Positions 16,184-38,972 of a stretch of DNA of 39,949 nt are shown here, in pieces. The stretch comes from Elusimicrobiota bacterium (GTDB lineage: Bacteria > Elusimicrobiota > UBA8919). The stretch is taken from assembly GCA_043816185.1 (NCBI GenBank), contig JBDRIG010000104.1, forward strand, positions 1-39,949, read 5' to 3'. Position 1 is the stretch's first letter. The number at the start of each line of letters is the position of its first letter. The translations under genes were made by a program, and so were the position numbers. The notes beneath the pieces are model-generated. The model saw only the letters and a program-made list of their open reading frames with translations, was not told where the DNA came from and searched no databases.

Positions 16184-16317
16184 AGACCAAATCATAAATC
16201 TAAGATCTAAAATAAACAGCGATAGTAGGCTGATATAAAAATACGGCGATATGTTTTTTCGCATAAATATATCGACCGGTATTTTCAATAACGACTTCAC
16301 AATTTATAGGTGTTAAT

Positions 16318-16791
16318 ATGAGCAGAAAATCAAAAAAAATAAAAAAAGAACCAGCTAAACCTGATTACAAATATAATAGTTTGATCGTGTCACGTTTTAT
16401 ATATGACATGCTGAAATGTGGGAAAAAATCTCATGCTGAAGCAATTTATTATGGTGCGATGGATATAATAAAACAGAGGTCAAAGCAGGAGCCGATGACA
16501 GTTTTAGAGCGCGCGATAAAAAATGTAAAACCACTTTTAGAAGTAAAACCACGTCGTGTTGGTGGAGCAACATACCAAATCCCCATTGAAGTAAAGCATG
16601 CTCGCGGTATTGCTCTTTCTGTCAGATGGCTTTTAATGTATGCAAGACAAAGGAAAGGCAAATCGATGGCCGAGCGATTAGCGTTAGAAATAACAGATGC
16701 TGCTAACAATACCGGTAGCGCAATTAAAAAAAGAGAAGATTCTCATAAAATGGCTGAGGCAAATAAAGCGTTTGCGCACTATAGATGGTGA
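16318..16791 (+). CDS. rpsG: 30S ribosomal protein S7
   Basis: [26 protein letters not shown]. Confidence 0.98.
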
Positions 16792-16813
16792 TAAAAACAG
16801 AATCGGGAATCAT

Positions 16814-18967
16814 ATGCCTGTTTTAGAAATGGAAGAAAAAAAGACGGACAAAACAAAAATGAGCGATTTATCAACTATTAGAAACATTGGAATTATAGCA
16901 CATATAGATGCAGGTAAAACAACAACTACCGAGCGTTTACTTTTTTATAGCGGAAAAATTCATCGTATAGGTAATGTTGATGAAGGAACCACAACTACCG
17001 ACTGGATGGAGCAGGAGCAAGAACGCGGTATAACCATAACTTCTGCTGCAATAACATGTGAATGGCTAGGGCATACTATTAACGTTATAGATACTCCTGG
17101 TCACGTTGATTTTACCGCAGAAGTTGAAAGATCGCTACGTATTCTTGACGGAGCGGTTGTTGTTTTTTGTGGTGTAGGTGGTGTTCAACCGCAGTCTGAA
17201 ACAGTGTGGCGTCAAGCAAATAAGTATAAGATTCCACGAATCGCTTTTATCAATAAACTCGATAGAACGGGTGCAAATTTTTTCAATGTTGTTAAGGCGA
17301 TGAAGAAAAAACTCAATGCAAATCCTATACCGTTACAAATACCTATCGGTATCGAAGATAAATTTTCTGGAATAGTTGATTTAATAAGAATGAAAGCATT
17401 TCAATATACAGATGACCTTGGTGTAAAATTTGAAGAAATAAAAATTCCACATGATATGGATTCTATCGTCAAAAAACATAGAGCGAAATTAATTGAGATA
17501 ACTGCCGATGTCGATCATGATGTTATGCATAAATTTGTATCAGGGGTTGGCAAGGTTACGGAGAGTGAAATAATCAATGCGATAAGATTATCGACGATTT
17601 CAGGAAAAATAGTTCCAGTCTTATGCGGTTCTTCTCTAAAAAATAAGGGCGTTCAATTTTTGCTCGATGCAATTACTCTATATTTACCTTCGCCAATCGA
17701 TGTATTATCTACCGATGAAACAAATCCCGATGTTGGACACGCAGGAAAGGTCAAAATTGTTGCCGATGAAAAAAGACCAATGTCAGCACTTGCATTTAAA
17801 ATCCAAACAGACCCGTTTGTTGGTCGTTTAACATATATTAGAGTTTACTCTGGGGTTATTAAAAGAGGGTGTTCTGTTTATAATTCGACACGCCAAATAC
17901 GAGAAAGAATATCAAAGCTCGTAAAAATGCATTCTAATGACCGCGAAGAGGTTGATGAGGTAAAAGCGGGTGATATAGCGGGTGTTGTTGGTTTCAAAAA
18001 AACATTTACAGGTGATACACTTTGTGACGAAGAAAATCAGATAATTCTTGAAAATATAAAATTTCCAGATCCTGTTATCTGGCTTGCGATTGAACCTAAA
18101 ACCAAGTCCGATGAGGAAAAACTTTCTAAAGCACTTTCAAAACTTTCCGAGGAAGATCCAACATTTAAATTTAAAATAGATGTCGAAACAGGGCAGACGA
18201 TTATTTCTGGAATGGGTGAACTGCACCTTGAAATCCTCGTCGATAGAATGAAACGTGAATTTTCTGTTGTAGCAAATATAGGTGCACCTCAGGTTGCTTA
18301 TAAGGAAACAATAAAGAAATCTGCCGAAGCAACAGGAAAATTTATTCGACAGACTGGTGGCCATGGGCAATATGGGCATGTCGAATTATTAGTTGAACCC
18401 AACTCGAAAGGAAGTGGTTTCGAATTTATAAATGATATTAGAGAGGGTCGTATTCCGAGAGAGTTTTTTTCATCAATTGAGAATGGAATTGTAACAGCTC
18501 TTGAAACAGGTGTTTTAGGAGGATTTCCCGTCGTTGATATTAAGGTAACACTTTTGGACGGCTCGTATCATGAGGTTGATTCATCGGATATTGCTTTTAA
18601 GATGGCAGCATCAATTGGAACAAAAGAAGCAATTAGAAAAGCAACACCATCTTTATTAGAACCAATAATGAAGTTAGAGGTAATCACACCAGAGGAATAT
18701 CTTGGCGATATTCTCGGAGATATAAACTCTCGTCGTGGAAGAATCGAAAACATTTTGGCAGATAAGGGTGCTCATTCAACTTTGCATAGTGATCATTCTG
18801 TTGGTGGGATTCATACGATTGATGGGCATATTCCATTAGCGTCAATGTTTGGTTATTCATCATCGCTGCGTTCATTGTCGCAGGGGCGAGCAACTTATAC
18901 GATGGAACCAGCATTTTACGAGAGCGTTTCTGAAAAATTAGCGCAGGAAATTTTGGGAATAAAATAA
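16814..18967 (+). CDS. fusA: Elongation factor G
   Basis: [30 protein letters not shown]; start uncertain (16814, 16829 or 16859). Confidence 0.96.
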
Positions 18968-19043
18968 AAAAGCAGAATTATGAATGAAAAGGGCGAATAG
19001 TGAATGAAAAGGCAATGCATTATTCTGTCGTAAGGAGGTTTTT

Positions 19044-20249
19044 ATGGCGAAGGAAAAATTTGCGAGGACAAAGCTGCATGTCAATGTTGGAACTATTGGT
19101 CATGTTGATCATGGAAAAACTACACTAACGGCAGCCATAACGAAGGTTCAGGAGAAAAAAGGTTTCTCAAAGTTCGTCAGTTATGACGAAGTTGCCAAAG
19201 CATCGGAGTCACAGGGTAGGCGTGACGAGACAAAAATTTTAACCATCGCTATAAGCCACGTTGAGTATGAGACAGAAAAAAGGCATTATGCTCACATTGA
19301 TTGTCCTGGGCATGCCGACTATATTAAAAATATGATAACAGGTGCTGCTCAGATGGACGGTGCAATACTTGTTGTTTCAGCATCAGATGGTCCTATGCCT
19401 CAAACCAGAGAGCATATTCTTCTTGCTCGTCAGGTCAATGTTCCACATATTGTTGTTTATCTCAATAAAGTTGATACAGTTGATGACCCAGAACTTGTTG
19501 ATTTAGTTGAAATGGAAATAAGAGATCTTTTGAAAAAATATCAATTTGATGGAGACAAAGTTCCGATTATCAGAGGAAGTGCTCTCAAAGCGATGCAAGG
19601 CGACACAAGTGAATTAGGGGAACCGTCGATTTGGAAACTAATGGAAGCAATAGATGCTACAATTCCAGATCCAAAACGCGATATAGATAAACCATTTTTA
19701 ATGAGCGTTGAAGATGTTTTTACAATTACAGGCCGAGGAACAGTCGCAACAGGTAGAATTGAGCGCGGGATAGTAAAAACTGGCGATGCGGCTGAATTAG
19801 TGGGAATTCAGGAAACAAGAAAATCGGTTGTTACATCAGTCGAAATGTTTAGAAAAATTCTTGATGAGGCTCAGGCTGGTGATAATGTCGGTGTGCTTTT
19901 GAGAGGGATTGAGAAGGGTCAAGTAGAACGTGGACAGGTAATAGCAGCACCAGGATCTATTACACCACACAAAAAATTCAGAGGACAGGTTTATGTTCTT
20001 ACGAAAGATGAAGGTGGAAGACATACCCCATTTTTCAATGGCTATAGACCACAATTTTATTTCAGAACAACAGATGTTACAGGTGTGGTCAATCTTCCCG
20101 AAGGCGTTAAAATGATAATGCCAGGTGATAATGTTGAGTTTGTTGGCGAACTTATAGTGCCAGTTGCGATGGAAAAAGAACTGCGTTTTGCAATTCGTGA
20201 GGGTGGACATACCGTCGGAGCAGGTGTTGTAAGTGAAATAATTGAATAA
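19044..20249 (+). CDS. tuf: Elongation factor Tu
   Basis: [43 protein letters not shown]. Confidence 0.98.
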
Positions 20250-20259
20250 GAAAGGTTGG

Positions 20260-20332
20260 AAATTGAATATATTTGTAGTTGGTTTTGTAGTGAGTGGTCT
20301 TTAGACCACTCATCTTTAGACCGTTCATATTT
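20260..20332. repeat. 73-nt REP/MITE-like palindromic element, copy 1
   Basis: 69/73 identical to 24164-24236; perfect IR TGAGTGGTCT-TT-AGACCACTCA preceded by GTAG. Confidence 0.85.
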
Positions 20333-20359
20333 TACGATTTTTAATTCACAGAGATTATT

Positions 20360-20698
20360 ATGGCGAAAACAGAACAATTGGTATCAATTTTAGGCGGGGA
20401 TAGAATAAGAATTCGATTGCAGACATATGATCATAAAACGCTTGATCAATCGCTCCTTGAAATAATTCAGGCAGCAAGGCGTACAGGTGCATCTATTTCC
20501 GGTCCCGTTCTTTTGCCCACAAGAATAAAAAAATATACAGTGCAGCGTTCGCCGCATTGCGATAAAAAATCACGCGAGCAGTTTGAGGTGAGAATACACA
20601 AACGACTTGTTGATATAATACATCCGACACCTCAGACAGTAGATGCGCTGATGAAATTAGATCTACCAGCTGGTGTGGATGTGGAGATAAAGGCGTAG
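20360..20698 (+). CDS. rpsJ: 30S ribosomal protein S10
   Basis: [31 protein letters not shown]. Confidence 0.97.
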
Positions 20699-20755
20699 AA
20701 TCGAAAAACAGATATAAAAATTTTGTGTCAATTTAGCGTGTTCGCGGTGTAAACA

Positions 20756-21442
20756 ATGAAATCAATCGTAGGAACAAAGATCGGTATGACACAAATATAT
20801 TTAAATAAAGGAGAGGCGATTCCTGTGACAGTGGTTTCTGCGGGGCCTTGCGTCGTTACCCAAATCAAAACAATTCAAACAGATAAATATAATGCAATTC
20901 AAGTGGGCTATTGTCCTACAATAGAAAAAAGACTCAATAAACCACAGCTTGGCCATCTCAAAAAAGCCTGTGCAACCGACACAAAATTGTTTAAGGTTTT
21001 GAAAGAATTTCGCATTGATGATCCATCTAACTATAAATTAGGTCAAGAAATAAAATGCGATCTTTTTTCCGTTGGTGATTTTGTAGACGTGACAGGTATT
21101 TCAAAAGGGCATGGTTTTCAAGGTGTTGTTAAAAGGCATGGTTTTGCCGGTGGCCCTAGTACTCACGGACAGTCGGACAAACAGCGTGCACCAGGTGCCA
21201 TTGGCCCACAGAGACCGCAAAAAGTAAGAAAAGGTTTAAGAATGGCAGGCAGAATGGGTGGCATTGGTGTTACTATTCAAAAATTAAAAGTTGTAAAAAT
21301 AATTCCTGAGAAAAATATTTTGTTGGTGAGAGGCGCAGTACCAGGTGTAAGGAATGGGCAGGTTGTTATATCTTCTGCTGTAAAGAAAACTAAGGTTTCT
21401 TCCGTGGTTCCTAAAAAAGAAGTTAAAAAAGCAAAAAAATAG
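20756..21442 (+). CDS. rplC: 50S ribosomal protein L3
   Basis: GTKIGMTQ, SKGHGFQGVVKRH, RGAVPG. Confidence 0.97.
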   Translation: MKSIVGTKIGMTQIYLNKGEAIPVTVVSAGPCVVTQIKTIQTDKYNAIQVGYCPTIEKRLNKPQLGHLKKACATDTKLFKVLKEFRIDDPSNYKLGQEIKCDLFSVGDFVDVTGISKGHGFQGVVKRHGFAGGPSTHGQSDKQRAPGAIGPQRPQKVRKGLRMAGRMGGIGVTIQKLKVVKIIPEKNILLVRGAVPGVRNGQVVISSAVKKTKVSSVVPKKEVKKAKK

Positions 21443-21515
21443 ATGTTTACAGAAAAACAAAAGGATTTGTAAAGTCGGAATTATAATCTTATAAAATCAA
21501 GACGTGGAGAAAAAT

Positions 21516-21770
21516 ATGAATAAATTTTGTCAAAGTTGTGGAATGCCGATGAAAAAAGATCCGCAGGAAGGCGGGACAAATTCTGATGGTACTAAGAATG
21601 CTGACTATTGTAGTTTCTGTTATCAAAAAGGAGCATTCACACAGCCCAATCTAACAGCAAAACAGATGCAAGATTTTTGTATTGAGAAAATGCGGGAAAT
21701 TGGAATGCCAAAATTTATAGGCTGGTTGTTTACTCGAAATATTCCTAAATTTAAACGTTGGAAGAAGTAA
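21516..21770 (+). CDS. Putative zinc-ribbon domain protein (Zn_ribbon_2-like)
   Basis: FCQSCGMPM...GTN.DG.KN.DYC.FCY..G.F...P..KRW pattern; GGAG RBS before ATG 21516. Confidence 0.85.
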   Translation: MNKFCQSCGMPMKKDPQEGGTNSDGTKNADYCSFCYQKGAFTQPNLTAKQMQDFCIEKMREIGMPKFIGWLFTRNIPKFKRWKK

Positions 21771-21894
21771 GCCAACTAAAAGTGGTGTATAAAAACTGGA
21801 ATTGGAAATTGTGAACGATTTTGCAATTCGTGGTATTGGAAACTGAATGTAGCTGCGAAGTCTCCTTGCTATTTCGCAGTTTACGGATGTTAAT

Positions 21895-22506
21895 ATGGAA
21901 ATAGATATTTATAATATAAAAGGTGAAAAAACTGGAACTATAGCACTACCTGAAAATGTTTTTGGTGCGAAGATAAATATTCCACTAATGCATGAAGTAG
22001 TTACATGGTATCTTGCAAATTCTCGGCAGGGAACACATTCTGCAAAAACACGCGCAGAAGTTTCTGGTTCTGGTAAAAAACCGTGGAAGCAAAAAGGTAC
22101 TGGTCGTGCACGCGCAGGAAGTATTCGTTCGCCGCTGTGGCGTCATGGTGGTATAATTTTTGCAAAAAAGCCAAGAGACTTTTCATATTCAATGCCGAAG
22201 AAAAAAGTTCACATTTCTCTTTTATCAGCACTTTCTTCAAAGGCAAAGGATTGTTCGATTATAGCATTAGATGAGCTTAAAATAGATGTGCCGAAAACAA
22301 AATTGGTTGCGAAAATAATATCCGTTTTAGGCGGGAATAACAAAGTTCTTCTTGTGTCAAAAAGAGATAAAACGCTAAATATGGCATCAAGGAATATAGC
22401 AAATTTATTTTTACATGATGTTAACGATTTGACAACTTATAATGTTTTAAATGCAGATAAAATAATATTCACAAAAGAAGCTTTGGACAGAATAGCACAG
22501 GGATAA
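21895..22506 (+). CDS. rplD: 50S ribosomal protein L4
   Basis: KTRAEVSG.GKKPWKQKGTGRARAGS. Confidence 0.97.
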   Translation: MEIDIYNIKGEKTGTIALPENVFGAKINIPLMHEVVTWYLANSRQGTHSAKTRAEVSGSGKKPWKQKGTGRARAGSIRSPLWRHGGIIFAKKPRDFSYSMPKKKVHISLLSALSSKAKDCSIIALDELKIDVPKTKLVAKIISVLGGNNKVLLVSKRDKTLNMASRNIANLFLHDVNDLTTYNVLNADKIIFTKEALDRIAQG

Positions 22507-22576
22507 GTTGCAGGCAATAAGAACTAAGAAACTTAATATTTAAAACGAACTGGGCGAGTGGTTTAATCCTATTACT

Positions 22577-22864
22577 ATGAATTCTTTCGATATAATAAAA
22601 AGACCAATTATCACAGAAAAAGCGACGAAGTTAAAAGAAATCAACAATAAATATGAGTTTGTTGTTGAAAAAAATGCAACAAAAGGGCAGATAAAAGAAG
22701 CGATTGAGCAGTTATTCAAAGTTAATGTTGAAAAGGTTCATACTGCTATATTGCCAGGGAAATTAAGAAGGCAAGGTGCACACGCAGGTTATAGAAACGA
22801 TTTTAAAAAAGCGATTGTGGATATAAAGAAGGGGCAATCAATAAAGATTGTGGAAGGTGTCTAA
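22577..22864 (+). CDS. rplW: 50S ribosomal protein L23
   Basis: PIITEK, IKEAIEQLFKV.V, KKAIV. Confidence 0.96.
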   Translation: MNSFDIIKRPIITEKATKLKEINNKYEFVVEKNATKGQIKEAIEQLFKVNVEKVHTAILPGKLRRQGAHAGYRNDFKKAIVDIKKGQSIKIVEGV

Positions 22865-22928
22865 GAGACAGAGTATAGCGATTGGCAAGATTTAAATTAA
22901 CAACATTTCACATTAGTCGGTAATTAAT

Positions 22929-23765
22929 ATGGGTATAAAAACATACGTACCATACACGCCGTCGAGGCGGTTTATAACAAGCGACGATTTTTCAGATGTA
23001 ACGAAAAAAACTCCTGAGAAGTCACTGCTACTTCCATTAAAAAGAACAGGTGGTAGAAATAATACAGGACATCTTACCGTTCGACATCAGGGCGGTGGTC
23101 ATAAGAAGATGTATCGAATAATTGATTTCAAAAGAGATAAAAGAAATGTTGTAGCCGATGTTATTGCTATTGAATATGATCCAAATCGTTCTTCGCGAAT
23201 AGCGTTAGTTAAATATCCAGACGACGAAAAAAGATATATTGTTTGTCCGCTCAATCTCAAGGTCGGCGACAAAATTGAAAGTGGAGAAAATGTAGAAATA
23301 AAAATTGGTAATGCATTGCCGATTTCAAACATACCGTTAGGAATCGAAATTCATAATTTAGAACTTATTCCTGGTTTCGGTGCAAAACTCGTTCGCTCGG
23401 CTGGCGGTGTTGCACAGATTATAGCAAAAGAAGGTGATTTTGCACACATAAAAATGCCATCTGGCGAAGTAAGAATGATTTCGCTTAAATGTTATGCGAC
23501 AATCGGGCAAATAGGAAATCTTGATCACGAAAATATTGTTTTAGGTAATGCTGGAAGAAAAAGACATCTGGGGATTAGACCGACAGTTAGAGGAACGGCC
23601 ATGAACTCAGTTGATCATCCGCATGGTGGTGGTCGTGGAAAATCAAAAGGCAATAATCAACCACAATCGCCGTGGGGTCAGCCCGCGAAAGGTTTCAAAA
23701 CCCGTTCAAAAAAGAAATGGACCAATATGTATATTGTTAAAAAGAAACCCAAGGGAGTAAGATAA
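22929..23765 (+). CDS. rplB: 50S ribosomal protein L2
   Basis: GGRNNTG, YRIIDFKR, IEYDPNRS, AMNSVDHPHGGG. Confidence 0.98.
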   Translation: MGIKTYVPYTPSRRFITSDDFSDVTKKTPEKSLLLPLKRTGGRNNTGHLTVRHQGGGHKKMYRIIDFKRDKRNVVADVIAIEYDPNRSSRIALVKYPDDEKRYIVCPLNLKVGDKIESGENVEIKIGNALPISNIPLGIEIHNLELIPGFGAKLVRSAGGVAQIIAKEGDFAHIKMPSGEVRMISLKCYATIGQIGNLDHENIVLGNAGRKRHLGIRPTVRGTAMNSVDHPHGGGRGKSKGNNQPQSPWGQPAKGFKTRSKKKWTNMYIVKKKPKGVR

Positions 23766-23813
23766 CGCACAAATAAAGATATTTGAATATTTGAGTAGTA
23801 AATGGAGTGAACA

Positions 23814-24101
23814 ATGTCAAGATCAACAAAAAAAGGTCCATATATTGACGAGAAACTTTTTAGCAAAGTTGAAAAACTCAACAGTATGGGAAAAAAAGTT
23901 CTAATTAAAACATGGGCGCGAGCATCTGTAATTCCACCAGAGTTTGTAGGTCATACATTTGGCGTTCACAATGGTAGAAAATTTATATCAGTCTATGTAG
24001 TTGAGAATATGGTAGGTCATCGTCTCGGTGAATTTTCGTTAACAAGATTTTTCAGAGGTCACGGAGCCGCGCATACAAAAGAGGCGTTAGAAAAAACATA
24101 A
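23814..24101 (+). CDS. rpsS: 30S ribosomal protein S19
   Basis: [26 protein letters not shown]. Confidence 0.97.
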
Positions 24102-24163
24102 GAAATAGTGTGTGTTTTGCTTTTTGTCTTTCGTTTCTCGTGGCTCATTTCTCGTTGTATCGT

Positions 24164-24236
24164 AAATTGAATGTATTTGTAGTAGGTTTGGTAGTGAGTG
24201 TTCTTTAGACCACTCATCTTTAGACCGTTCATATTT
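24164..24236. repeat. 73-nt REP/MITE-like palindromic element, copy 2
   Basis: 69/73 identical to 20260-20332; embedded in pyrimidine-rich heptamer repeats (TTTCTCG-like). Confidence 0.85.
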
Positions 24237-24312
24237 GATGGCTCGTTTCTCTGCATCTTGTTTCTTACGTCTCATAGTCACTTGTCTTATTACGCCTTAC
24301 ACTGGTATTTAT

Positions 24313-24654: not shown

Positions 24655-24699
24655 ATCGTCGATTATTTATTATTCATTTTGTAGTTCATAGGTGTTAAT

Positions 24700-25488: not shown

Positions 25489-25588
25489 TAGGTGGTAAGC
25501 GGCAAAGTAGATTCGCCGCAAACGATAAGCGATAAGTTTTTTCTTAATCTTTACCACTTAATCCTTAGTACTAATTTCTGGTGTTATA

Positions 25589-26002: not shown

Positions 26003-26097
26003 GGTAGTTGAGAATTGAGAACCGAGAGTTAAGAATTGTTGTAAGCGTTAGATATTAAAATCTATAGTTCTTAGTTTTCGATTTTCGATTGATTGAT

Positions 26098-26624: not shown

Positions 26625-26638
26625 AATCTCTAATCAAT

Positions 26639-27007: not shown

Positions 27008-27092
27008 AAATAGGGCGTGAGAAAGAGTAGGTAATAGAGTTTAGGGATCAATAATTTTAACTAAACCCTAACTACTACTATTCGATTATAAT

Positions 27093-27419: not shown

Positions 27420-27493
27420 AAATAAGGGGTTAGAGAATTATAGAATGGTTAAAGTCGGTAATTTTTAACCACCTATTGCTCTCTGATATTAAT

Positions 27494-28785: not shown

Positions 28786-28840
28786 AAATGGTCGTAGGTT
28801 GTAAATGGTTAATTGTTGATTAACGATTCACGGGGTTTAT

Positions 28841-29419: not shown

Positions 29420-29518
29420 GAAGAGTACAAATAGAAATACCAAATAGAGACACCAAATAACCATACTGAATTATTCGATTAAAGTTCGGTTTTTATTTGG
29501 GTGTAAGTAGAGATAACA

Positions 29519-29869: not shown

Positions 29870-29925
29870 GAGGCAGTGGTAAATAGTAGGGATTAAGAAA
29901 AAATTTAATTCTTAATTTTAATATT

Positions 29926-30390: not shown

Positions 30391-30473
30391 AAAAACAGTA
30401 AGAGGCAGTAGTAAGTTATAAGAAGTAAATTTTTTTTGATAGTTACAATTTACAACTTAATTCTGATTTTATT

Positions 30474-30926
30474 ATGAATTTATCCGATTTAAAACCGAAG
30501 GTTGGTTCGAAGCATAGAAAAAAAATTATTGGTCGTGGCCGTGGTTCAGGGCATGGTGGTTCTGCCACAAGAGGTATGAAGGGGCAGAACTCACGTTCTG
30601 GGAGAGGTACTCGTCCAGGATTTGAAGGCGGACAAATGCCTCTTATGCGTCGTATTCCAAAAAGAGGATTTACAAATATTTTCAAGAAAGAATACGAAAT
30701 AATAAATGTTAGTACACTTGAAGAAGTTTTTGAACCCAATACTGATCTTAACAAAAAAATTCTTATCGAAAAAGGGTTGATAAGAGGCAAGTTACCTTTG
30801 AAAGTTTTGGGTGCTGGTGAGCTGAAGAAACCACTAAAAATTACTGCTGACAAATTTTCAAAAAGTGCAATTGAAAAAATAAGGAAGACAGGTGGAGAAG
30901 CGATAAGTGCAAGGAGTAAGGAGTAG
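30474..30926 (+). CDS. rplO: 50S ribosomal protein L15
   Basis: GRGRGSGHG, GFEGGQMPLMRRIPKRGF. Confidence 0.97.
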   Translation: MNLSDLKPKVGSKHRKKIIGRGRGSGHGGSATRGMKGQNSRSGRGTRPGFEGGQMPLMRRIPKRGFTNIFKKEYEIINVSTLEEVFEPNTDLNKKILIEKGLIRGKLPLKVLGAGELKKPLKITADKFSKSAIEKIRKTGGEAISARSKE

Positions 30927-30990
30927 TAAAGTTAACAACTAACCTCTATCCCTTGATTTCTGACCCCAACCTCCAACTCTTGATATTAAA

Positions 30991-32316
30991 ATGATTCAAT
31001 CGTTTGGCGATATTTTTAAGGTTCCTGAGTTAAAAAAGAGGGTTTTGTTTACTGCGGTTGTAATTATTGCTTACAGGATTGGCGTAGCAATACCAATTCC
31101 TGGAATTAATATTGCAGCGTTTAAGGCATTTTTTGCCCAGCAAACAAACACACTTTTTGGATTTATGGATATGTTTTCAGGTGGTGCACTTTCGCGGCTA
31201 TCAATTTTTACACTTGGAATAATGCCATACATCAATGCGTCAATCATTTTTTCACTTTTGCAAGTAACAATTCCATATCTCGAGAAACTCTCTAAAGAAG
31301 GTGAAACGGGAAGAAAAAAAATTACACAGTGGACGAGGTATGCAACCTTAATCCTTGCAATAATACAATCACTGGGCTTGACACTTTTTATGATAATGCC
31401 GATGAAAGCGCCTGGCGGCGAATCTGTTGTGATGAATCCTGGCACATTATTTGTTTTCATTACAGTTTTAACTATGACAACTGGTACCGTTTTTATAATG
31501 TGGCTTGGTGAGCAAATTACTGAGAGTGGTATCGGTAATGGTATTTCACTCATAATTTTCACAGGTATCGTTGATCGTTTGCCGTCCGCTGTTAAGAATC
31601 TTTTTTATATGATAAAAACACATGAGATGTCGCTTTTTACCGGTATCTTAATTTTAGGAGCAGTTTTTGCAATAATTGCACTTGTTGTTTGGGTTGAGAC
31701 AGGTCAAAGGAAAATTCCGGTTCAATATGCAAAAAGAGTTGTCGGCAGAAAAATGTACGGTGGTCAATCAACCTTTCTTCCTATAAAGGTTGACCAATCG
31801 GGGGTAATCGCCGTAATTTTTGCTGTTTCATTGATGTCGGTTCCAATGACACTTGCACAATTTACACATAGTTCTGGTTTTATGAAAAAATTTATTGATT
31901 GGTGGATGCGTGGAACTATTTTCTATGAGATAATTTATGGCGCATTGATTGTGTTTTTCTGTTATTTTTATAATTCAATAACTTTGAATCCAAAAGACAT
32001 TGCTGAAAATATGAAAAAATGGGGTGGTTTTGTTCCTGGTATGAGGCCAGGCGAACCAACAGCTAATTATGTTCAGTGGGTTTTAGCAAGAATCACTTTG
32101 GGTGGTGCTCTTTTTGTCACGTTTATAGCAGTATTACCCGATTACTTGAGAAAATTTGTGAATGTTCCGTTTTTTTTCGGTGGTACCGCACTTTTGATTG
32201 TTGTTGGTGTTGCACTCGATACTATTGGTCAAGTAGAGTCGCATCTTATAATGAGACATTACGACGGATTCTTAAAAAAAGGTAGAATTAAGAGTAGATG
32301 GTTTAACATTAAATAA
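30991..32316 (+). CDS. secY: Preprotein translocase SecY
   Basis: LGIMPYINASII, WLGEQIT..GIGNGISLIIF, FGGTALLIVVGV. Confidence 0.98.
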   Translation: MIQSFGDIFKVPELKKRVLFTAVVIIAYRIGVAIPIPGINIAAFKAFFAQQTNTLFGFMDMFSGGALSRLSIFTLGIMPYINASIIFSLLQVTIPYLEKLSKEGETGRKKITQWTRYATLILAIIQSLGLTLFMIMPMKAPGGESVVMNPGTLFVFITVLTMTTGTVFIMWLGEQITESGIGNGISLIIFTGIVDRLPSAVKNLFYMIKTHEMSLFTGILILGAVFAIIALVVWVETGQRKIPVQYAKRVVGRKMYGGQSTFLPIKVDQSGVIAVIFAVSLMSVPMTLAQFTHSSGFMKKFIDWWMRGTIFYEIIYGALIVFFCYFYNSITLNPKDIAENMKKWGGFVPGMRPGEPTANYVQWVLARITLGGALFVTFIAVLPDYLRKFVNVPFFFGGTALLIVVGVALDTIGQVESHLIMRHYDGFLKKGRIKSRWFNIK

Positions 32317-32368
32317 TGCGAGTAATATGAAACAAATAAACTTACTTATAGTTTGCATGGAGTAAACA

Positions 32369-33016
32369 ATGAATCTAATACTTTTTGGAGCACCTGGTTC
32401 AGGCAAAGGAACGCAGGCATTGTCCATAGCGAAAGAAAAAGGGATTTCGTTTATTTCTACTGGCGATATACTTCGTGAAGCAGTTATATCAAAGAGTTCT
32501 CTTGGGCAAAAAATTGCTGAAACTATATCAAGAGGTTCTCTTGTTTCAGATAGTATAATTCTTGGAATAATTGACGAACGTCTAAGAGAAACCAATTCTA
32601 AAAACGGATTTTTGTTAGATGGGTTTCCAAGAACGCTTCCACAAGCAAAATTATTTGAAGGGTTACTTTTGTCAATCAAAGAAAAGATTGATAAGGTAAT
32701 TTTATTAGATGTAACAGAAGAAAATATAGTTCAGCGAATTCTTTCACGACGAACTTGTAAAAAATGCGGTGCCAAATTTAATTTAGAAACGCTTCCGCCA
32801 AAAGTTGATGGTGTTTGCGATGATTGTGGTGGTTCGCTTTTTCAAAGAAGTGATGACACTGAAAAAATTGTCAAACATCGTCTTTCCGTCTATTATATTG
32901 AAACACAACCGCTCGCTGATTATTATAAAAACGAAGGTCTTTTGGTTACCGTTGACGGTAATAGACCTGTTGAAGAAATATCCAAAGAAATTGCTGCTAT
33001 ATTACACGATTATTAA
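32369..33016 (+). CDS. adk: Adenylate kinase (Zn-LID type)
   Basis: GAPGSGKGTQA, LDGFPRT, CxxC...CxxC LID, QRSDD. Confidence 0.97.
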   Translation: MNLILFGAPGSGKGTQALSIAKEKGISFISTGDILREAVISKSSLGQKIAETISRGSLVSDSIILGIIDERLRETNSKNGFLLDGFPRTLPQAKLFEGLLLSIKEKIDKVILLDVTEENIVQRILSRRTCKKCGAKFNLETLPPKVDGVCDDCGGSLFQRSDDTEKIVKHRLSVYYIETQPLADYYKNEGLLVTVDGNRPVEEISKEIAAILHDY

Positions 33017-33099
33017 AAAAGCAGGTTAATGGCAGGCTAAGGATTAAGAAACTTAATACTCGAAGAGAATGAAACAACCAGCTTAATTTCACTATTAAT

Positions 33100-33849
33100 A
33101 TGATTTGCATAAAGTCGCCAGATGAGATTATTGGCATGCGGAATGCCTGTCGACTTGCAGCAGAGGTTTTAGATACTGTTGGGAAAAATATAAAATTAGG
33201 AATATCAACAAAGGAACTTGAAACCATTGCCGCAAAAAAGATAAAAATACTTGGTGCAAAGTCGGTGTTTTTAGGTTATCATGGTTATCCTGGCGTAATT
33301 TGTACTTCAGTTAACAATGTTGTTATTCATGGTATTCCATCGACACAAAAACTTAAAGAAGGCGATATTGTTGGAATTGATGTCGGGGTTATTTTAGATG
33401 GATTTTGTGGGGATACGGCGAAAACTTTTACAGTAGGAAGAATTTTGCCAGAAGCAGAAAAACTTTTGAGTGTTTCCGAGTTGTCGCTAAAAACCGCCTT
33501 AGGAAAGTGTAGGGCAAATTGTCGTGTCGGTGATGTTTCAGGGGCAATACAAACGGTCGTCGAAAAAAATGGGTTTTCAGTTGTCAGAGATTTTGTTGGA
33601 CATGGTGTTGGTAGACAATTACACGAAGATCCACAGATACCAAACTATGGAACGCCGGGCGTAGGATTGCGAATTCCTGAAAACTGTTGTCTTGCTGTCG
33701 AGGTTATGGTAAATCAGGGTGACTGGCACGTAAAAATACTTGATGATAGTTGGACGGTTGTTACGCTTGACGAAAAACTTTCGGCACATTTTGAGCATAC
33801 TGTTTTAGTGAAAAAAGATAGTTGTGAAGTACTAACTAATTATAAATAA
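33100..33849 (+). CDS. map: Methionine aminopeptidase type I
   Basis: CTSVN.VVIHGIP, GHGVG..LHEDP, SAHFEHT. Confidence 0.97.
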   Translation: MICIKSPDEIIGMRNACRLAAEVLDTVGKNIKLGISTKELETIAAKKIKILGAKSVFLGYHGYPGVICTSVNNVVIHGIPSTQKLKEGDIVGIDVGVILDGFCGDTAKTFTVGRILPEAEKLLSVSELSLKTALGKCRANCRVGDVSGAIQTVVEKNGFSVVRDFVGHGVGRQLHEDPQIPNYGTPGVGLRIPENCCLAVEVMVNQGDWHVKILDDSWTVVTLDEKLSAHFEHTVLVKKDSCEVLTNYK

Positions 33850-33968
33850 AAGTAGCAAATAAAAAATACTCGAACGAAGCACTGAATAGTTGTATCGAAT
33901 CTTAATCAAATATTCAGTTCAGTTTGTTGTAATAAATTCGGTTTTCGTTTGAATATGGGTAAGCAAAT

Positions 33969-34196
33969 ATGCAAAAAGAGGAAAAAATTGAAGTAGTAGG
34001 TATAGTAAAAGAGGTTCTACCGTCGGCAATGTTTCGCGTTCAAACTGAAAATGGTCACAGTGTTATTGCTAGAATTTCTGGAAAAATGAGGATGAATTAT
34101 ATTCGTATTATTATCGGTGATAAAGTAAAAGTTGAACTTTCACCATATGATTTAACAAGAGGAAGAATTACTTATAGAGAGAAAGGAAAACAATAG
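33969..34196 (+). CDS. infA: Translation initiation factor IF-1
   Basis: [29 protein letters not shown]. Confidence 0.97.
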
Positions 34197-34252
34197 GAGC
34201 GATTAAGGATTGAAAACTGGGAGTTGAAAATTTAATAAATCAAAAAATTCTT

Positions 34253-34294
34253 AATTCTTGGTTTGAAATTTGCAATTAGTTTTATCTTAATTCT
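34253..34294. repeat. 42-nt repeat, copy 1 (upstream of rpmJ)
   Basis: 39/42 identical to 36321-36362. Confidence 0.75.
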
Positions 34295-34308
34295 TGATTG
34301 ATTTTAAA

Positions 34309-34422
34309 ATGAAAGTACGCTCATCAATAAAACCATTTTGTAAAAAATGTAAGATTGTAAAACGTAGCGGTGTATTGCATATTATTTGCAAAAATCCAAA
34401 ACACAAACAGAGACAGGGATAG
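34309..34422 (+). CDS. rpmJ: 50S ribosomal protein L36 (not in ORF track)
   Basis: Translation [37 protein letters not shown]. Confidence 0.97.
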
Positions 34423-34500
34423 GGGCAGGGTGTAGGAGATTGGGTATAGTAAAATCAGTGATTTTTAATTACCTTTTGCTCCTTACTCCTTAGTGTTATT

Positions 34501-34896
34501 ATGGCACGAATAGCAGGTATTGATCTACCAAAAGGAAAAAGAATAGACATAGGACTTTCCTACATTTATGGAATAGGGAGAGTTCTTGCAAAGGAAATTT
34601 TGGACGAAGCAAAAATTGATCCATCAAAAAAGGTAAAAGATTTAACAGAAATAGAGGTAGGAAAACTTGCAGGAATTATTTCATCCGATTATAAGGTTGA
34701 AGGTGATTTGCGTCGTGAGATTGTTAGTAATATTAAGAGGTTGCAAGAAATAGGAACATACAGAGGATCGAGACATCGCAGAAATTTGCCTGCCAGAGGT
34801 CAGAGAACAAAGACAAACGCGAGAACAAAAAGAGGAAAGAGAAAAACGGTCGGTGCGGTTAAAATGGAAGTTAAAAAAGAAAAGGAAGCGAAGTGA
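34501..34896 (+). CDS. rpsM: 30S ribosomal protein S13
   Basis: [29 protein letters not shown]. Confidence 0.98.
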
Positions 34897-34972
34897 GATT
34901 GGTGACAGGAAAAAGTGAGTAGTAAAATCAATAGATTTTAATTACCGTTACAATCCACTTCCTAATGTTAAT

Positions 34973-35455
34973 ATGGAAGAAGAAAAATCAAAAGAAATTG
35001 AAGAATCAAAATTAAACAAACCAACAGTAAAAAATGACTCTGCTTCAAAAAAAGCAGCACCGGATGCCCATCATCTCGTAGCGAAACGTAAATCAAGAAA
35101 GAAATTAACTTCAACAAGTGGCAAGGTTTTTATTAAATCGTCATTTAACAATACAATTATCACAATTACTGACGACAAAGGTGATGTTATAAATTGGGCT
35201 TCAAGCGGTTCTTCTGGTTTTAAGGGGACAAAAAAAGGAACACCGTTTGCCGCTCAAATAGCGTCAGCAGGTTGTGCACAAAAAGCGGCCGAAATGGGAT
35301 TAAAATATGTTTCGGTTTTTGTTTCTGGGCCTGGAAGTGGTCGCGAAACAGCTATAAGAGCATTGCAGTCGTCTGGTTTATCAGTTACTTCTATCAAAGA
35401 TGTTACGCCTATTCCACACAATGGGTGTAGACCGCCAAAGCAAAGGAGAGTGTAA
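34973..35455 (+). CDS. rpsK: 30S ribosomal protein S11
   Basis: [34 protein letters not shown]; long charged N-terminal extension. Confidence 0.97.
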
Positions 35456-35531
35456 AAGAGGCAAAGCGTAGGGGATAGTAAAATTAATAATTTTTTAATC
35501 AACCCCTTATTTTTTACCTCTTAGCGTTAGT

Positions 35532-36173
35532 ATGGCAAGATATTTAGGACCTAAATGTAGAAGATGTAGACAAGAGCAAATACCTTTATTTTTGAAAGGT
35601 GAAAGATGTGGTACGCCCAAGTGTTCCATCATCAAAAAGAAAGGGCCTCCTGGACCCCACAAAAAAATGATGAAAAAACCGTCTGAGTACTCTATTCAGT
35701 TGCGTGCTAAACAGCAAGTGAAAAGAATTTACGGTGTAATGGAGCGACAATTTAGAAGATATTTTTACAACGCATTAAAACACAAAGGTATGACAGGTTT
35801 TAATCTTTTATTGTCTTTAGAGATGCGGTTGGACAATGTTGTTAGACGACTTGGATTTTCGTCGTCGATTTCAGGTTCCAGACAGCTGGTTCTTCATAGA
35901 CATGTCAAGGTCAACGATAAAATAATAAACATACCGTCGTATCAAGTAAAAGTAAACGATAAAATTCAAGTAGTAGATAAGCTTAAAGAAAGTCCGTCTG
36001 TTAAAAAAGCGGCAGATATGCTTTCAAAAAAAGGTGTATCACCATGGTTGTCGTTGGATCTCTCTAATTTATCCGGTTTGGTTATAAAACAACCATTAAG
36101 AGAAGAAATGTCCATTCCGTATGACGAGGAAAGACCAAAAGAACAGTTGATTATTGAATTATATAGCAAATAA
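35532..36173 (+). CDS. rpsD: 30S ribosomal protein S4
   Basis: MARYLGPKCRRCR, LEMRLDNVV.RLG, EQLIIELYSK. Confidence 0.97.
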   Translation: MARYLGPKCRRCRQEQIPLFLKGERCGTPKCSIIKKKGPPGPHKKMMKKPSEYSIQLRAKQQVKRIYGVMERQFRRYFYNALKHKGMTGFNLLLSLEMRLDNVVRRLGFSSSISGSRQLVLHRHVKVNDKIINIPSYQVKVNDKIQVVDKLKESPSVKKAADMLSKKGVSPWLSLDLSNLSGLVIKQPLREEMSIPYDEERPKEQLIIELYSK

Positions 36174-36320
36174 AGAGGTAGTTGACACTATTTCGTTAAG
36201 TTCAGTTCGTCATTTCGAGCGTTTTTGTTTGTCATTGCGGGCGAAGCGAATGAAATGAGCGACGAAGCAATCTCGCTTTTAGCACAGAGATTGTCACGAG
36301 CCAATAAATCGGAAATTCAC

Positions 36321-36362
36321 AATTCTTGATTCGAAATTTGCAATTAGTTTTATCTCAATTCT
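36321..36362. repeat. 42-nt repeat, copy 2 (upstream of rpoA)
   Basis: 39/42 identical to 34253-34294. Confidence 0.75.
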
Positions 36363-36397
36363 CAGTTTTTAATTAATTTTATAGGGGGTTATAAAAA

Positions 36398-37381
36398 ATG
36401 CAGCTTCCCGATATAGTTAGGCCTCAGAAGATTGAAAAAAATATCTCTTCTGATTTGACTTGTGGAAAATTTGAAATTTCGCCATTTGAGAAAGGTTATG
36501 GACATACGGTGGGGCACTCACTTCGCCGTATACTTTTATCTTCATTGGAAGGTGCTGCTGTTGTAGCCACTCGTATAAAAGGTGCTTCACATGAATTTAC
36601 AACACTGCCAGGGGTTGTGGAAGATGTAATGAGTATAGTACTAAATCTTAAAAAAATAAGATTTAAAACTTATGGTACCGATGAGCTTCAGACGCTTAAA
36701 TTGTCGGTTTCAAAAGGCGGTGCAGTTTTGGCATCATCTTTCGAAACAAACTCAAATATAGAGATTGTAAATCCTAATTTTGTTATTGCTACGCTTGAAA
36801 CTGGTGGAACCCTGGATATGGAAATTGATGTCGCGAAAGGTAGGGGTTATTTGCCCGCCGGAAAAAACAAAAGATATGGTCAGCCAGTAGGAACTATTTT
36901 TGTGGATGCACTTTTTTCACCGATTACCAAAGTTTTTTATGAAGTTGAAGCAACCCGTGTTGGTCAAGCAACCGACTACGATCGTCTAATTATGGAAATA
37001 TGGACTGATGGTTCAGTAAATCCAGAAGATGCGCTTATTTTTTCGGCAAAACTTTTGAATGATTCGATCAAAGTTTTTATGAACTATGATGAAGACGAAA
37101 AGGTATCTCCACAGGTTTTAGAAAAATCGATATCTATCGAATCTAACGAATCCGATGAACCCTATAGTGATATTCTAAATCAGCCGGTTGAAATTATAGA
37201 GCTTTCAAACCGCGCAGCCAATTGTTTAAAACAGGCAAAAATAAAAACAATAGGAGAATTGGCTAAAAAGACGAAAGAAAAACTTCTTGTTTATAAAAAT
37301 TTTGGAAAAAAATCTCTTGATGAGATAGAAATGAAACTTAAAGAAATGGGTGTTTCGTTAAAGGAGAGCGAAGAGCAGTGA
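36398..37381 (+). CDS. rpoA: RNA polymerase alpha subunit
   Basis: PFEKGYGHTVGHSLRRILLSS, DALFSP, NFGKKSLDEI. Confidence 0.98.
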   Translation: MQLPDIVRPQKIEKNISSDLTCGKFEISPFEKGYGHTVGHSLRRILLSSLEGAAVVATRIKGASHEFTTLPGVVEDVMSIVLNLKKIRFKTYGTDELQTLKLSVSKGGAVLASSFETNSNIEIVNPNFVIATLETGGTLDMEIDVAKGRGYLPAGKNKRYGQPVGTIFVDALFSPITKVFYEVEATRVGQATDYDRLIMEIWTDGSVNPEDALIFSAKLLNDSIKVFMNYDEDEKVSPQVLEKSISIESNESDEPYSDILNQPVEIIELSNRAANCLKQAKIKTIGELAKKTKEKLLVYKNFGKKSLDEIEMKLKEMGVSLKESEEQ

Positions 37382-37455
37382 TGAATAATAGGCGATAGAG
37401 ATTAGGTGCTAAATTTTTTAATCCCTATAATCTATAATTTAGTCCTGGTGTTAAT

Positions 37456-37806
37456 ATGAAAAATAAGAAGAACAGAAAATTAAACAAAACAACCGAGCAT
37501 CGTTTTGCGATGTTAAGAAATATGAGTACGTCACTTATAGAAAATGAGTCGGTTGAAACTACTCTTGCTAAAGCAAAAGAACTTGTAAAATTTGCTTCCA
37601 AAATTATAACATTAGCAAAGAAAGGTGGTTTAACTTATAGGCGACGTGTTTTAATGGACATAAAATCACCAGATGCGATAGAAAAACTATTTGGCATTAT
37701 AACAGAAAGATATAAAGATCGCCCAGGCGGATATACTCGCATTTATAAATTAGGTCGCCGTGTTTCCGACGGAAGCGAAATGGCAGTTGTGAAATTGGTA
37801 GAATAA
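37456..37806 (+). CDS. rplQ: 50S ribosomal protein L17
   Basis: HRFAMLRNM, TTLAKAKEL, RPGGYTRI. Confidence 0.97.
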   Translation: MKNKKNRKLNKTTEHRFAMLRNMSTSLIENESVETTLAKAKELVKFASKIITLAKKGGLTYRRRVLMDIKSPDAIEKLFGIITERYKDRPGGYTRIYKLGRRVSDGSEMAVVKLVE

Positions 37807-37880
37807 AGGCAATTAAAAATTGAAAATTAAAGATTGTTTGTTTTAATTTTTTCGATTTTTAGTTTTTAATTGGTGTTTCT

Positions 37881-38909
37881 ATGTTTGATTATTTTTTTTC
37901 ACTTTTTTCAAATGACATGGGAATTGATCTTGGCACAGCCACGACCCTCGTTTATGTAAAAGGGTCTGGCATTGTTTTAAGAGAGCCATCAGTAGTTGCA
38001 TACAACAAAGAAACGCATGTGATAGAGGCCATTGGTGAAGAAGCAAAAAAAATGGTCGGTAAAACACCTGCTTCAATTGAGGTAATAAGACCATTAAGAA
38101 ATGGTGTCATTGCCGATTTTAATATTACCGAAAAGATGATTCGGCATTTTATTAAAAAAGTCCACAAAAGAAAAACACTTCTTCATCCAAGAATTGTAAT
38201 TGGTATCCCATCAGGAATTACAGAAGTTGAACGTCGTGCTGTCCGCGAGGCAGCGGAGCAAGCTGGTGCTCGTGAAGTTTATCTCATCGAAGAACCTATG
38301 GCTGCGGCAATAGGTGCTGGTCTTCCTATTCACGAACCAACAGGCAACATGGTGGTGGATATTGGCGGTGGAACTACTGAAGCAGCGGTGATTTCTTTAG
38401 GTGGGATGGTTGTTTCCAGTTCAATTCGAATTGCTGGTGACGAGTTTGATGAAGCAATTATCTTATTTTTTAAGAAGACATATAATATGGCAATTGGTTA
38501 CAAAACAGCAGAAGGTGTAAAAATTTGTATCGGCTCAGTTTTTCCGTTGAGTAAAGAGGAAACAATGGACGTTAAAGGACTTGATTTAGCACACGGCTTG
38601 CCAAGAACAATAAACGTTTCAAGTAAAGATATAAGATCTGCACTAATGGAACCCGCTAGATCAATAGTCGAGATGGTAAGAAATGTTCTTGAAAGGACAC
38701 CTGCTGAACTTGCATCAGAATTAGTCGATAGAGGAATTGTGCTTGCAGGAGGTAGTTCTCTGATGCGAGGCATGACAGACCTTCTTTCAAAAGAAACCCA
38801 TCTTCCTGTTTATCTTGCACAAGACCCCACGACCTGTGTCGTTTTAGGAACAGGCAAATACTTAGAAGAGATTGAAAACATAAAAAAAACGCGTGAACGG
38901 TTGGAATGA
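37881..38909 (+). CDS. mreB: Rod shape-determining protein MreB
   Basis: [37 protein letters not shown]. Confidence 0.97.
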
Positions 38910-38972
38910 AAGAGGCAATTGAAAATTGAGGATTCTCAACTCTTGATTCTCAATTCTTGGTTGATTTCGTGT

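Follow-up and report, generated by a model that had tools for sequence, protein, structure and literature searches.

The DNA considered here is the whole of contig C104 (JBDRIG010000104.1; 39,949 nt) of an Elusimicrobiota bacterium. We refer to it as the window, and our subject is the long spacers between its ribosomal-protein genes, a number of which take the form of repeat-armed hairpins reaching from one stop codon to the next start. The source genome (G000) is a metagenome-assembled genome (MAG) of 1.44 Mb in 112 contigs, with a G+C content of 34% and a completeness of 94% (CheckM-type); among named genomes it comes closest to Elusimicrobia/Elusimicrobiota MAGs from groundwater. The genomes of relatives are given G numbers and the stretches taken from them L numbers.

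The 3' part of a 23S rRNA gene and a 5S rRNA gene occupy positions 1-2927 and are followed by four non-ribosomal genes, by rplJ, rplL, rpoB and rpoC, by rpsL (15776-16183), rpsG, fusA and tuf, and then by the S10-spc-alpha genes, among which rpmJ lies at 34309-34425 and rplQ at 37456-37806; mreB and mreC come after rplQ. This map was confirmed by Pfam and its start codons were then refined. They were set by homology and by a recurrent GGTGTTAAT-ATG context, and are our own calls rather than annotation. No L30 gene was found among the S10-spc-alpha genes of the window, no tRNA or tmRNA was found in the window, and Rfam searches of the window at gathering thresholds returned LSU and 5S rRNA only. 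A 16S rRNA gene was not found in G000; the anti-Shine-Dalgarno (anti-SD) sequence was taken from three relatives, whose 16S 3' end reads GGATCACCTCCTTT.

Long spacers and hairpins in the window

From tuf onward, the spacers at 30 of the 32 junctions measure no less than 40 nt (median 74.5 nt). A first-pass annotation of this DNA had drawn attention to long junctions at rplD-rplW (70 nt), rplP-rpmC (95 nt), rpmC-rpsQ (50 nt) and rplO-secY (64 nt), and these lengths are correct. It had also described nearly every spacer as a hairpin, which goes too far: hairpins are more frequent than chance would have it, but they account for only about a third of the spacers. Strong palindromes (score of at least 24, wobble allowed) occur in 13 of 32 spacers on the sense strand and in 9 of 32 on the antisense strand, against 3.4 ± 1.4 (maximum 7) in 40 shuffle sets. 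These scores replaced a looser criterion for bridging hairpins (span of at least 60%, at least 12 bp) because shuffled spacers pass the latter about half the time (21 observed in the window vs 16.3 ± 2.7 in shuffles). When the 34 spacers of at least 30 nt were folded against 200 dinucleotide shuffles each on both strands, the mean z was -1.18 on the plus strand and -1.19 on the minus strand, with p ≤ 0.05 in 10/34 and z < -2 in 8/34. The five hairpins singled out by name in the first-pass annotation do fold (z -5.2, -3.97, -2.61, -2.27 and -1.9, the last at p 0.05), while three of the spacers cited for their length fold no better than shuffles (rplD-rplW, z +1.88; rpmC-rpsQ, +0.06; rplO-secY, +0.70).

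Degenerate 7- and 11-mer units, which had been thought to make up most of the spacers, are present in some of them; "most" is an overstatement for the window, since Tandem Repeats Finder (TRF), run at its lowest threshold, gives about eight arrays with periods of 6, 7, 8, 11, 13 and 20. The spacers are mostly single-copy by sequence, nearly each with a unit of its own. Purines make up 0.62 of their first halves and 0.46 of their second, and a purine-then-pyrimidine layout is seen in 30 of 34. The constant polarity remarked upon earlier thus largely holds, but it carries no strand information, because a palindrome of this layout reads purine-then-pyrimidine on both strands; polarity was dropped as a strand test for that reason. 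Genome-wide, the corresponding purine fractions in G000 are 0.565 and 0.528, the layout is found in 57.5% of 346 spacers, and purine-first palindromes in co-directional spacers outnumber pyrimidine-first ones by 39 to 11, irrespective of gene strand. Overall, about a third of the window's spacers are significant hairpins and about a quarter carry tandem units, the others being long purine-then-pyrimidine relics.

The hairpins and modules of the window, all on the forward (+) strand, are the following.

37807..37880: rplQ-mreB module, the best preserved (z -5.2, p 0/200; palindrome score 41), laid out as TAA-AGGCAATT, an (AATTAAA)n arm, a loop, a (TTTTTAG/TTTTTAA)n arm and TTG-GTGTTTCT-ATG
37382..37455: rpoA-rplQ module with a GAGATTAG-type arm and the end CCTGGTGTTAAT-ATG (palindrome score 28; z -0.61)
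35456..35531: rpsK-rpsD hairpin, AAGAGG..AGGGG / CCCCT..CCTCTT (z -2.27, p 0.015)
34897..34972: rpsM-rpsK hairpin with the end TTCCTAATGTTAAT-ATG (z -1.54)
34426..34500: rpmJ-rpsM module, TAG-GGGCAGGGTGTAGGAG ... CTCCTTACTCCTTA-GTGTTATT-ATG (z -2.61, p 0.02)
34197..34308: infA-rpmJ hairpin, GATTAAGGATTGAAAA / CTTAATTCTTGATTG (z -2.77)
33850..33968: map-infA spacer, a long imperfect hairpin (palindrome score 39; z -1.71)
30391..30473: rpsE-rplO module, AAGAGGCAGTAGTAAG ... CTTAATTCTG-ATTTTATT-ATG, with canonical ends (palindrome score 26)
29870..29925: rplR-rpsE module, TAA-GAGGCAGTGG, GGGATTAAGAA / TTCTTAATTT (palindrome score 25)
29420..29518: rplF-rplR spacer, which combines a partial hairpin with tandem 13-nt units CAAATAGAAACAC (z -1.9, p 0.05)
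27420..27493: rplX-rplE hairpin with the end CTCTCTGATATTAAT-ATG (z -3.54, p 0/200; palindrome score 29)
27008..27092: rplN-rplX degenerate hairpin, GAGTAGGTAATAGAGTTTAGGG / CCCTAACTACTACT (z -0.89 sense, -2.44 antisense)
26003..26097: rplP-rpmC hairpin with heptamer arms by TRF, (TTGAGAA)x4.4 / (TTTTCGA)x2.3 (z -3.97; palindrome score 44)
25489..25588: rpsC-rplP spacer with a hairpin and the end TTTCTGGTGTTATA-ATG (z -1.85, p 0.05)
16184..16317: rpsL-rpsG spacer with an internal hairpin and the end ATAGGTGTTAAT-ATG (z -3.01, p 0.01)

At rplQ-mreB the hairpin has its 5' foot 3 nt past the stop and its 3' foot 8 nt ahead of the start, and TRF finds arrays with periods of 7 and 8 at 37811-37835 and 37841-37867; the rplF-rplR array (29428-29459) has a period of 13 and 2.5 copies. 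Several of these spacers have recognizable counterparts in relatives. A AATTAAAAAT family is common to the rplQ-mreB junctions of the window and of L001, the GAGATTAA family to which rpoA-rplQ may be compared is found in clean form in G001 and L008, and the GGATTAAG family seen at rplR-rpsE has matches at many places in G001. At rpsC-rplP, stretches L002-L006 have a 29-nt gene overlap instead of a spacer. Elsewhere in G000, further modules lie at rplU-rpmA, rimP-nusA, pgm-secG, lolA-rodZ, rne-cdsA and two more junctions.

Modules, turnover and cargo in related genomes

The orthologous ribosomal region was compared in 14 genomes of the phylum and later in 14 more from other families. Gene order is conserved across the 14 phylum genomes and spacer occupancy is variable, so that one and the same junction may be overlapping or a few nt long in one genome and 80-180 nt long in another. 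In genomes of the same family the modules are intact and, to judge by their sequences, active-looking. Each proceeds from the stop codon through a few A residues and (A/G)GGCAG to a purine-rich arm of tandem 7-, 8-, 10- or 11-nt units, a short loop, the complementary pyrimidine-rich arm, CTG, and about 8 nt (GTGTTAAT; (G/A)T(G/T)TTAAn) before the ATG. Spacers of L001, L002, L003, L005 and L008 fold with mean z values of -2.6 to -4.8; those of two distant genomes give -0.5 and -0.7. The main arrays of L008 have periods of 7, 8, 10 and 11, beside the periods of 6 to 20 listed above for the window, and the arrays form inverted pairs belonging to many unit families.

The ends of the modules stay alike while the unit families enclosed by them differ. 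The motif GGC[AG][AG] lies within 8 nt of the stop in 13/21 spacers of L002, 16/26 of L008 and 4/34 of the window (0.9 expected), and the 3' motif precedes the start in 15/21, 15/26 and 11/34, respectively (0.4 expected in the window); neither was found in the distant L011 and L013. Among 112 hairpins, the 3' foot stands 8-9 nt ahead of the start in 29 and the 5' foot 0-6 nt past the stop in 73.

Within one relative genome, a single module family fills many junctions. A 17-nt arm end has 31 exact occurrences in G010, split about evenly between the ribosomal region and dispersed sites. Sixteen copies lying beyond the S10-spc-alpha stretch were examined, and 11 of these proved to be canonical modules that run from stop to start between co-directional genes (for example rpmI-rplT, rplU-rpmA, rplA-psd and ptsI-lepA). 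Fillings are also exchanged over short evolutionary distances: rpsK-rpsD has four different ones within one genus, and rplQ-mreB holds a clean GAGATTAA-type module in the congener G001 vs an AATTAAA-type in the window. In close relatives the empty sites are 1-6 nt long or overlapping and consist only of TAATG, TAATTATG or similar, and therefore what was inserted is the module in its entirety, AGGCAG and GGTGTTAAT included. Where the junction is an overlapping ATGA, a copy of the overlap is found at either side of the insert (8 bp at adk-map in L001, ATGA(GA) at rpmC-rpsQ).

Some of these hairpins carry a gene. Matches to the Pfam family 23S_rRNA_IVP (IVP, or S23p), named for the intervening sequences (IVS) of 23S rRNA, number 1-13 in each of 10 same-family genomes; the relatives' proteins match NCBIfam TIGR02436 ("four helix bundle protein"), and one weakly matches Avd of diversity-generating retroelements. 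The first-pass annotation had proposed looking for cargo genes between the arms, and such cargo exists: 15 of 17 IVP genes from eight relatives lie inside such hairpins, with a purine repeat arm that reaches as far as the start codon and its pyrimidine complement following directly on the stop. The two other genes examined have partial arms and no arms, respectively. Several IVP-bearing hairpins sit in operon junctions with canonical ends, e.g. upstream of glmS in two genomes. G000 itself has no Pfam match to 23S_rRNA_IVP, and tblastn searches of it with 13 IVP proteins from relatives gave nothing below E 0.5 and thus no IVP remnants. When our folding results were pooled over 24 genomes, the window included, 129/202 junction spacers had z < -2 in the 12 IVP-positive genomes vs 24/129 in the 12 IVP-negative ones; L007, L009, L010 and L012 were unscored in this tally, and the IVP-negative G027 (L091) had no scorable spacer.

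Two observations on IVP-like genes in G010 may be recorded separately. An IVP-carrying hairpin in L064 (G010:C1:200700-201800) stands, by eye, between a seeming smpB and a seeming tmRNA gene, the downstream sequence beginning GGGGGTGAACAGGGCTCGACGGG. At G010:C16:39635-41233 and C23:592-2169 a reverse transcriptase adjoins a weak IVP/Avd-like ORF; these loci are probably diversity-generating retroelements in a relative.

Signals of a possible RNA-level constraint and the weighing of explanations

In palindrome alignments scored neutrally (G.T and A.C alike), G.T pairs outnumber A.C pairs by 170 to 99, where composition would predict a ratio of 0.9-1.3. A second signal concerns Shine-Dalgarno (SD) strength, taken over 16 nt from the stop codon's last two bases and over positions -20 to -4 before the next start. 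Strength beside the stop anticorrelates with start-proximal strength, both in the window (rho -0.48, n 32) and over all core loci (rho -0.40, n 155), and 10 window junctions combine a 5'-flank SD of -5.8 kcal/mol or lower with a 3'-flank SD of -3.2 kcal/mol or higher. Ten window genes (including rpsE, map, rpsK, rpsD, rpsM and rplE) lack an SD close to the start and show an SD-like AGG/GAGG at the previous stop, ~60-100 nt upstream. At rpsK-rpsD, for example, an SD-like AAGAGG adjoins the stop and no SD lies near the start (duplex energy -5.8 in the 5' flank vs +0.2 at -20..-4); the equivalent pairs are -7.2 vs +0.2 at rpsM-rpsK, -9.7 vs +0.2 at rplR-rpsE and -8.6 vs -2.4 at rplN-rplX. The effective SD-start spacing, by a noisy automated estimate, falls between -4 and +7 nt in 27 of 50 cases, the linear median being 81 nt.

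Taken as sequence signals, the G.T excess and the SD anticorrelation are evidence for a constraint that would act at the RNA level. The first-pass annotation had offered three readings of the spacers: scars left by a mobile or cassette system whose sequence varies, stems bringing stop and start together, and elements for processing or stability. For the second, a putative function, the geometry fits; the third is plausible by comparison with the RNase III excision of rRNA IVS, and genes for RNase III and RNase E/G are present in the genome. The first is the best supported, through multi-copy families, swaps within a genus, empty sites of 1-6 nt and a cargo gene.

We therefore favour, at a probability of about 0.68, the reading that the expanded spacers are remnants of lineage-wide palindromic repeat modules that occupy stop-start junctions, ORF-less and IVS-like selfish derivatives that have decayed in the window. 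The ORF-less hairpins are most likely non-autonomous derivatives of IVS-like elements, because the same arms enclose IVP/S23p genes. As for the window's own copies, which are diverged, mostly single-copy and weakly pairing, and which lie in a genome without an IVP match, we infer that they are decaying relics rather than an active system.

Such modules could be borne by an operon in the following way. In the operon transcript the arms would pair, holding the stop codon and the SD-like AGG of the 5' foot close to the AUG, which lies 8-9 nt past the 3' foot, so that translational coupling, by termination-reinitiation or SD-directed initiation, would survive the insertion. It is probably this RNA hairpin that makes the modules tolerable to host genes, and by analogy with rRNA IVS the long stem would probably also be an RNase III substrate. 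The purine-first polarity may be inherited from the autonomous, ORF-bearing form, since the arm upstream of an IVP gene must supply its ribosome-binding site; the G-poor arm beside the following start may, in addition, avoid false starts. As the mover of the modules, IVP is a candidate by association only. A broader proposal makes IVP/S23p the propagation or maintenance factor of a widespread and so far undescribed class of palindromic tandem-repeat elements in both operon stop-start junctions and rRNA, rendered harmless because RNA fold-back or RNase III clipping would reunite SD or stop with the following start codon, with genomes that lose IVP keeping eroding hairpins. We put this forward tentatively and regard it as rather unlikely as it stands.

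Several observations weigh against a mobile origin of the spacers or soften the support for it. Firstly, the signal in the window is modest: to the 13 strong palindromes in 32 spacers may be added that only 2 spacers pass the neutral-score cut. A strand asymmetry, another check that the first-pass annotation had proposed, does not appear in the window, where the two strands give equal z and a G.U bias cannot be measured (G.T 3 vs A.C 4 in two hairpins); the larger G.T count given above is inflated, because copies of one family within a genome are non-independent. Other co-directional spacers of G000, of which 150 out of 226 were sampled, show a similar folding excess (mean z -0.96), and the hairpin propensity is thus not superoperon-specific. 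Secondly, no mobility mechanism turned up. The eight Y1/RAYT-like genes examined (RAYT, repetitive extragenic palindrome (REP)-associated tyrosine transposase) are flanked by unrelated REPs, and reverse transcriptase, found in 3/10 same-family genomes, is not found in the hairpin-rich G005, G008 and G003; neither is supported as the driver. Canonical modules show no target duplication, and the duplications are thus inconsistent across sites. Thirdly, the association between IVP and hairpins across genomes is suggestive only, because related genomes are non-independent; G030 has four IVP genes and 0/8 folding spacers, and the IVP-less G016 and G020 have 3/5 and 4/6. Since G000 is a 94% complete MAG, its lack of IVP is to be read as "not found".

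The strongest alternative is that the hairpins are host-selected RNA devices that tune ribosomal-protein stoichiometry, whether through RNase III/RNase E processing, 3'-end protection or bridging of the stop-proximal SD to the AUG for re-initiation. Their tight feet (3', 8-9 nt to the start; 5', 0-6 nt past the stop) would suit such devices, yet the same junctions work at 1-6 nt or overlapping in close relatives. The inverse relation of stop-proximal and start-proximal SD strength and the excess of G.T over A.C on the sense strand point the same way, as do the RNase III and RNase E/G genes, but z is the same on both strands and the sequence families are swapped within a genus. In T4 genes 38 and 25 a hairpin between SD and AUG restores a working spacing (according to the part of PMC3014915 available to us), which lends the bridging version a precedent. 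Against host selection also stand the unrelated ORF that modules carry and the decay of the hairpins in G000 while the genes stay intact, and we consider the explanation improbable.

A purely local growth of the spacers, in which replication slippage multiplied short units and template switching took place across the nascent palindrome with no transfer between sites, we judge more improbable again. The arms are indeed tandem arrays of variable copy number (at rpmC-rpsQ, L008 has one arm with seven heptamer copies), and polymerase slippage is the cause to which bacterial heptamer over-representation is put down in the available part of PMC4692102. That nearly every window spacer has its own unit, with few copies elsewhere, would follow from such growth; local growth is harder to reconcile with identical modules at dozens of unrelated junctions in one genome, with different unit families bounded by the same termini, and with IVP genes enclosed by the same arms.

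Some ribosomal operons are autoregulated via mRNA structures, and a promoter-like TTGACA-17-TACAAT does lie upstream of rpsL, but ordinary signals (intrinsic terminators or attenuators, internal promoters, ribosomal-protein operator sites) are very improbable as the general explanation, given terminator-like sites without excess over shuffles (17 vs 12.2 ± 3.8 expected, most of the 17 within coding sequence), promoter-like sites at 47 vs 62 ± 7, Rfam matches to rRNA alone at gathering thresholds, and units that vary between junctions and relatives. The promoter-like site itself (TTGACA-17 nt-TACAAT, ~15627-15655) is in the 204-nt rpoC-rpsL spacer, and the str/S10 genes may therefore use a promoter of their own instead of rpoC read-through.

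Known systems, other features and wider meaning

The modules share traits with several described systems; the comparisons below refer to those parts of the cited papers that were available to us. In PMC4990558, rRNA IVS are selfish elements with complementary borders that form a 28-bp stem, whose loop holds an S23p ORF for a four-helix-bundle protein; upstream of this ORF come an AG-rich SD-like stretch and then strain-variable tandem heptamers, RNase III excision takes place within the stem, and IVS origin and function are called unclear. Like 23S rRNA IVS, the modules have complementary ends that pair into a long stem (mean z of -2.6 to -4.8 among relatives), a four-helix-bundle ORF in the loop in relatives of the window, and the AG-rich SD-like stretch with variable tandem heptamers upstream of that ORF. 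Unlike IVS, they occupy stop-start junctions of mRNA, none being inside an rRNA helix; most junction copies are ORF-less with arms that are long multi-unit arrays, and RNase III excision of modules is analogy only. The window's copies differ further in being ORF-less and decayed, and its 23S gene carries LAGLIDADG ORFs.

On that 23S gene we note, as a separate matter, that its match at positions 1-2686 covers model positions 1742-2925 (1184 nt) spread over 2686 nt. Within the surplus of ~1.5 kb lie two ORFs for LAGLIDADG endonucleases (370-876 and 1223-1678), and the gene therefore probably contains two group I introns.

With REP sequences, bacterial interspersed mosaic elements (BIMEs) and the REPIN-RAYT system of REP doublets (PMC3116915, PMC3333891, PMC3733652, PMC2817692), the modules have in common that they are dispersed multi-copy extragenic palindromes among co-transcribed genes, with a short conserved end tag and fast turnover. 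They differ in length (45-180 nt vs 20-40 for REP), in arms made of tandem units, in their fixed stop-to-start position, and in an end tag that reads AGGCAG, vs GTAG or CGTC. Y1_Tnp matches are present in all 11 same-family genomes, and the eight RAYT-like genes examined (L040-L047, from G010, G005 and G008; ~230 aa) have inverted REPs of their own, six of GGGGAC type and one of GGGACAGGTAC type; the flanks of the eighth (L046) carry a repeat-armed palindrome around GGACGTCC. Compared with miniature inverted-repeat transposable elements, arms are present, with an 8-bp duplication at one filled site, ATGA-type ones at another and none at canonical modules; no transposase parent was found, and the ORF-bearing forms in relatives carry IVP.

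Heptamer simple sequence repeats (SSRs) offer another parallel. TAACTGA repeats in Beggiatoaceae, Cyanobacteria and Bacteroidetes lie near start codons, also in ribosomal operons, with few SDs downstream (PMC4679880), and GGGAATC / GGGGAYT repeats are reported in Xanthomonas and Nostoc, with SSR excess and slippage discussed (PMC4692102). Like them, the modules contain tandem 7-nt intergenic units a few nt from the start, in variable copy number, before genes mostly without a canonical SD. The heptamer SSRs are direct arrays of a single unit, whereas the modules pair an array with its inverted complement, comprise many unit families and in some cases enclose an ORF. As to mechanism, the hairpins between SD and AUG in T4 genes 38 and 25 cut the linear spacing from 22 to 5 nt and from 27 to 11 nt (PMC3014915), and a linear distance of ~80 nt in the modules would similarly fall to ~8-9 nt. 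The T4 hairpins are short, single-copy and mutation-tested; those of the modules are predicted, and the likeness is one of mechanistic analogy. A literature search, with supplements outside its scope, turned up no description of such junction modules in Elusimicrobia, in ribosomal operons or in mRNA junctions, and as far as these searches show the modules are undescribed in print for mRNA junctions.

Four further features of the window, likewise on the forward (+) strand, are of other kinds.

36174..36397: rpsD-rpoA spacer, in which a repeat dispersed throughout the genome is combined with a 42-nt repeat (z -0.94)
24102..24312: rpsS-rplV spacer with a 73-nt dispersed repeat (24164-24236)
21516..21770: Zn_ribbon_2 gene of 84 aa between rplC and rplD (Pfam PF12674, E 1.4e-25)
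20250..20359: tuf-rpsJ spacer with a hairpin on the 73-nt repeat (20260-20332; z -3.55)

The dispersed repeat at rpsD-rpoA (36190-36290; GTCATTTCGAGCG...GCGAAGCG...AAGCAATC type) has 71 BLAST matches elsewhere in the genome, and rpoA has a GGGGG SD of its own. The 42-nt repeat, which contains TTCGAAATTTGCAATTAGTTTTATCT, occurs at 34253-34294 upstream of rpmJ and at 36321-36362 upstream of rpoA with 92.9% identity; from its sequence it may belong to a further repeat family or else be an internal promoter. The two 73-nt copies are 94.5% identical, weaker partial copies are found on C57, C90, C51 and C110, and with its GC-richer core hairpin (GTGAGTGGTC..GACCACTCAT) this repeat seems to be an element type distinct from the repeat-armed modules. 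The Zn_ribbon_2 gene is missing at rplC-rplD in all 10 relatives that cover the junction; no complementary arms were found around it, which places it outside any hairpin element. The neighbourhood between the rRNA genes and rplJ also has an odd gene content: an MtrA-like gene (PF04208; 3177-3956) lies directly downstream of the rRNA genes, and after it come two ORFs that match nothing in Pfam and a gene for an HMA-domain protein.

Few stretches of bacterial DNA are as compact and as conserved as the ribosomal-protein operons, and here dozens of their junctions have taken in a fast-evolving palindrome of 60-180 nt, the more so in relatives, with no visible damage to the flanking genes. For annotation, this means that such spacers should not be mistaken for small RNAs, terminators or riboswitches. 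If the link to IVP/S23p is true, the rRNA IVS, the abundant "four helix bundle protein" genes and the bacterial heptamer excess would be parts of one system, and many natural test cases would become available in which a hairpin separates SD or stop from start with translation still coupled. Should IVP prove to be a propagation or maintenance factor, the rRNA IVS would gain an origin and IVP a function.

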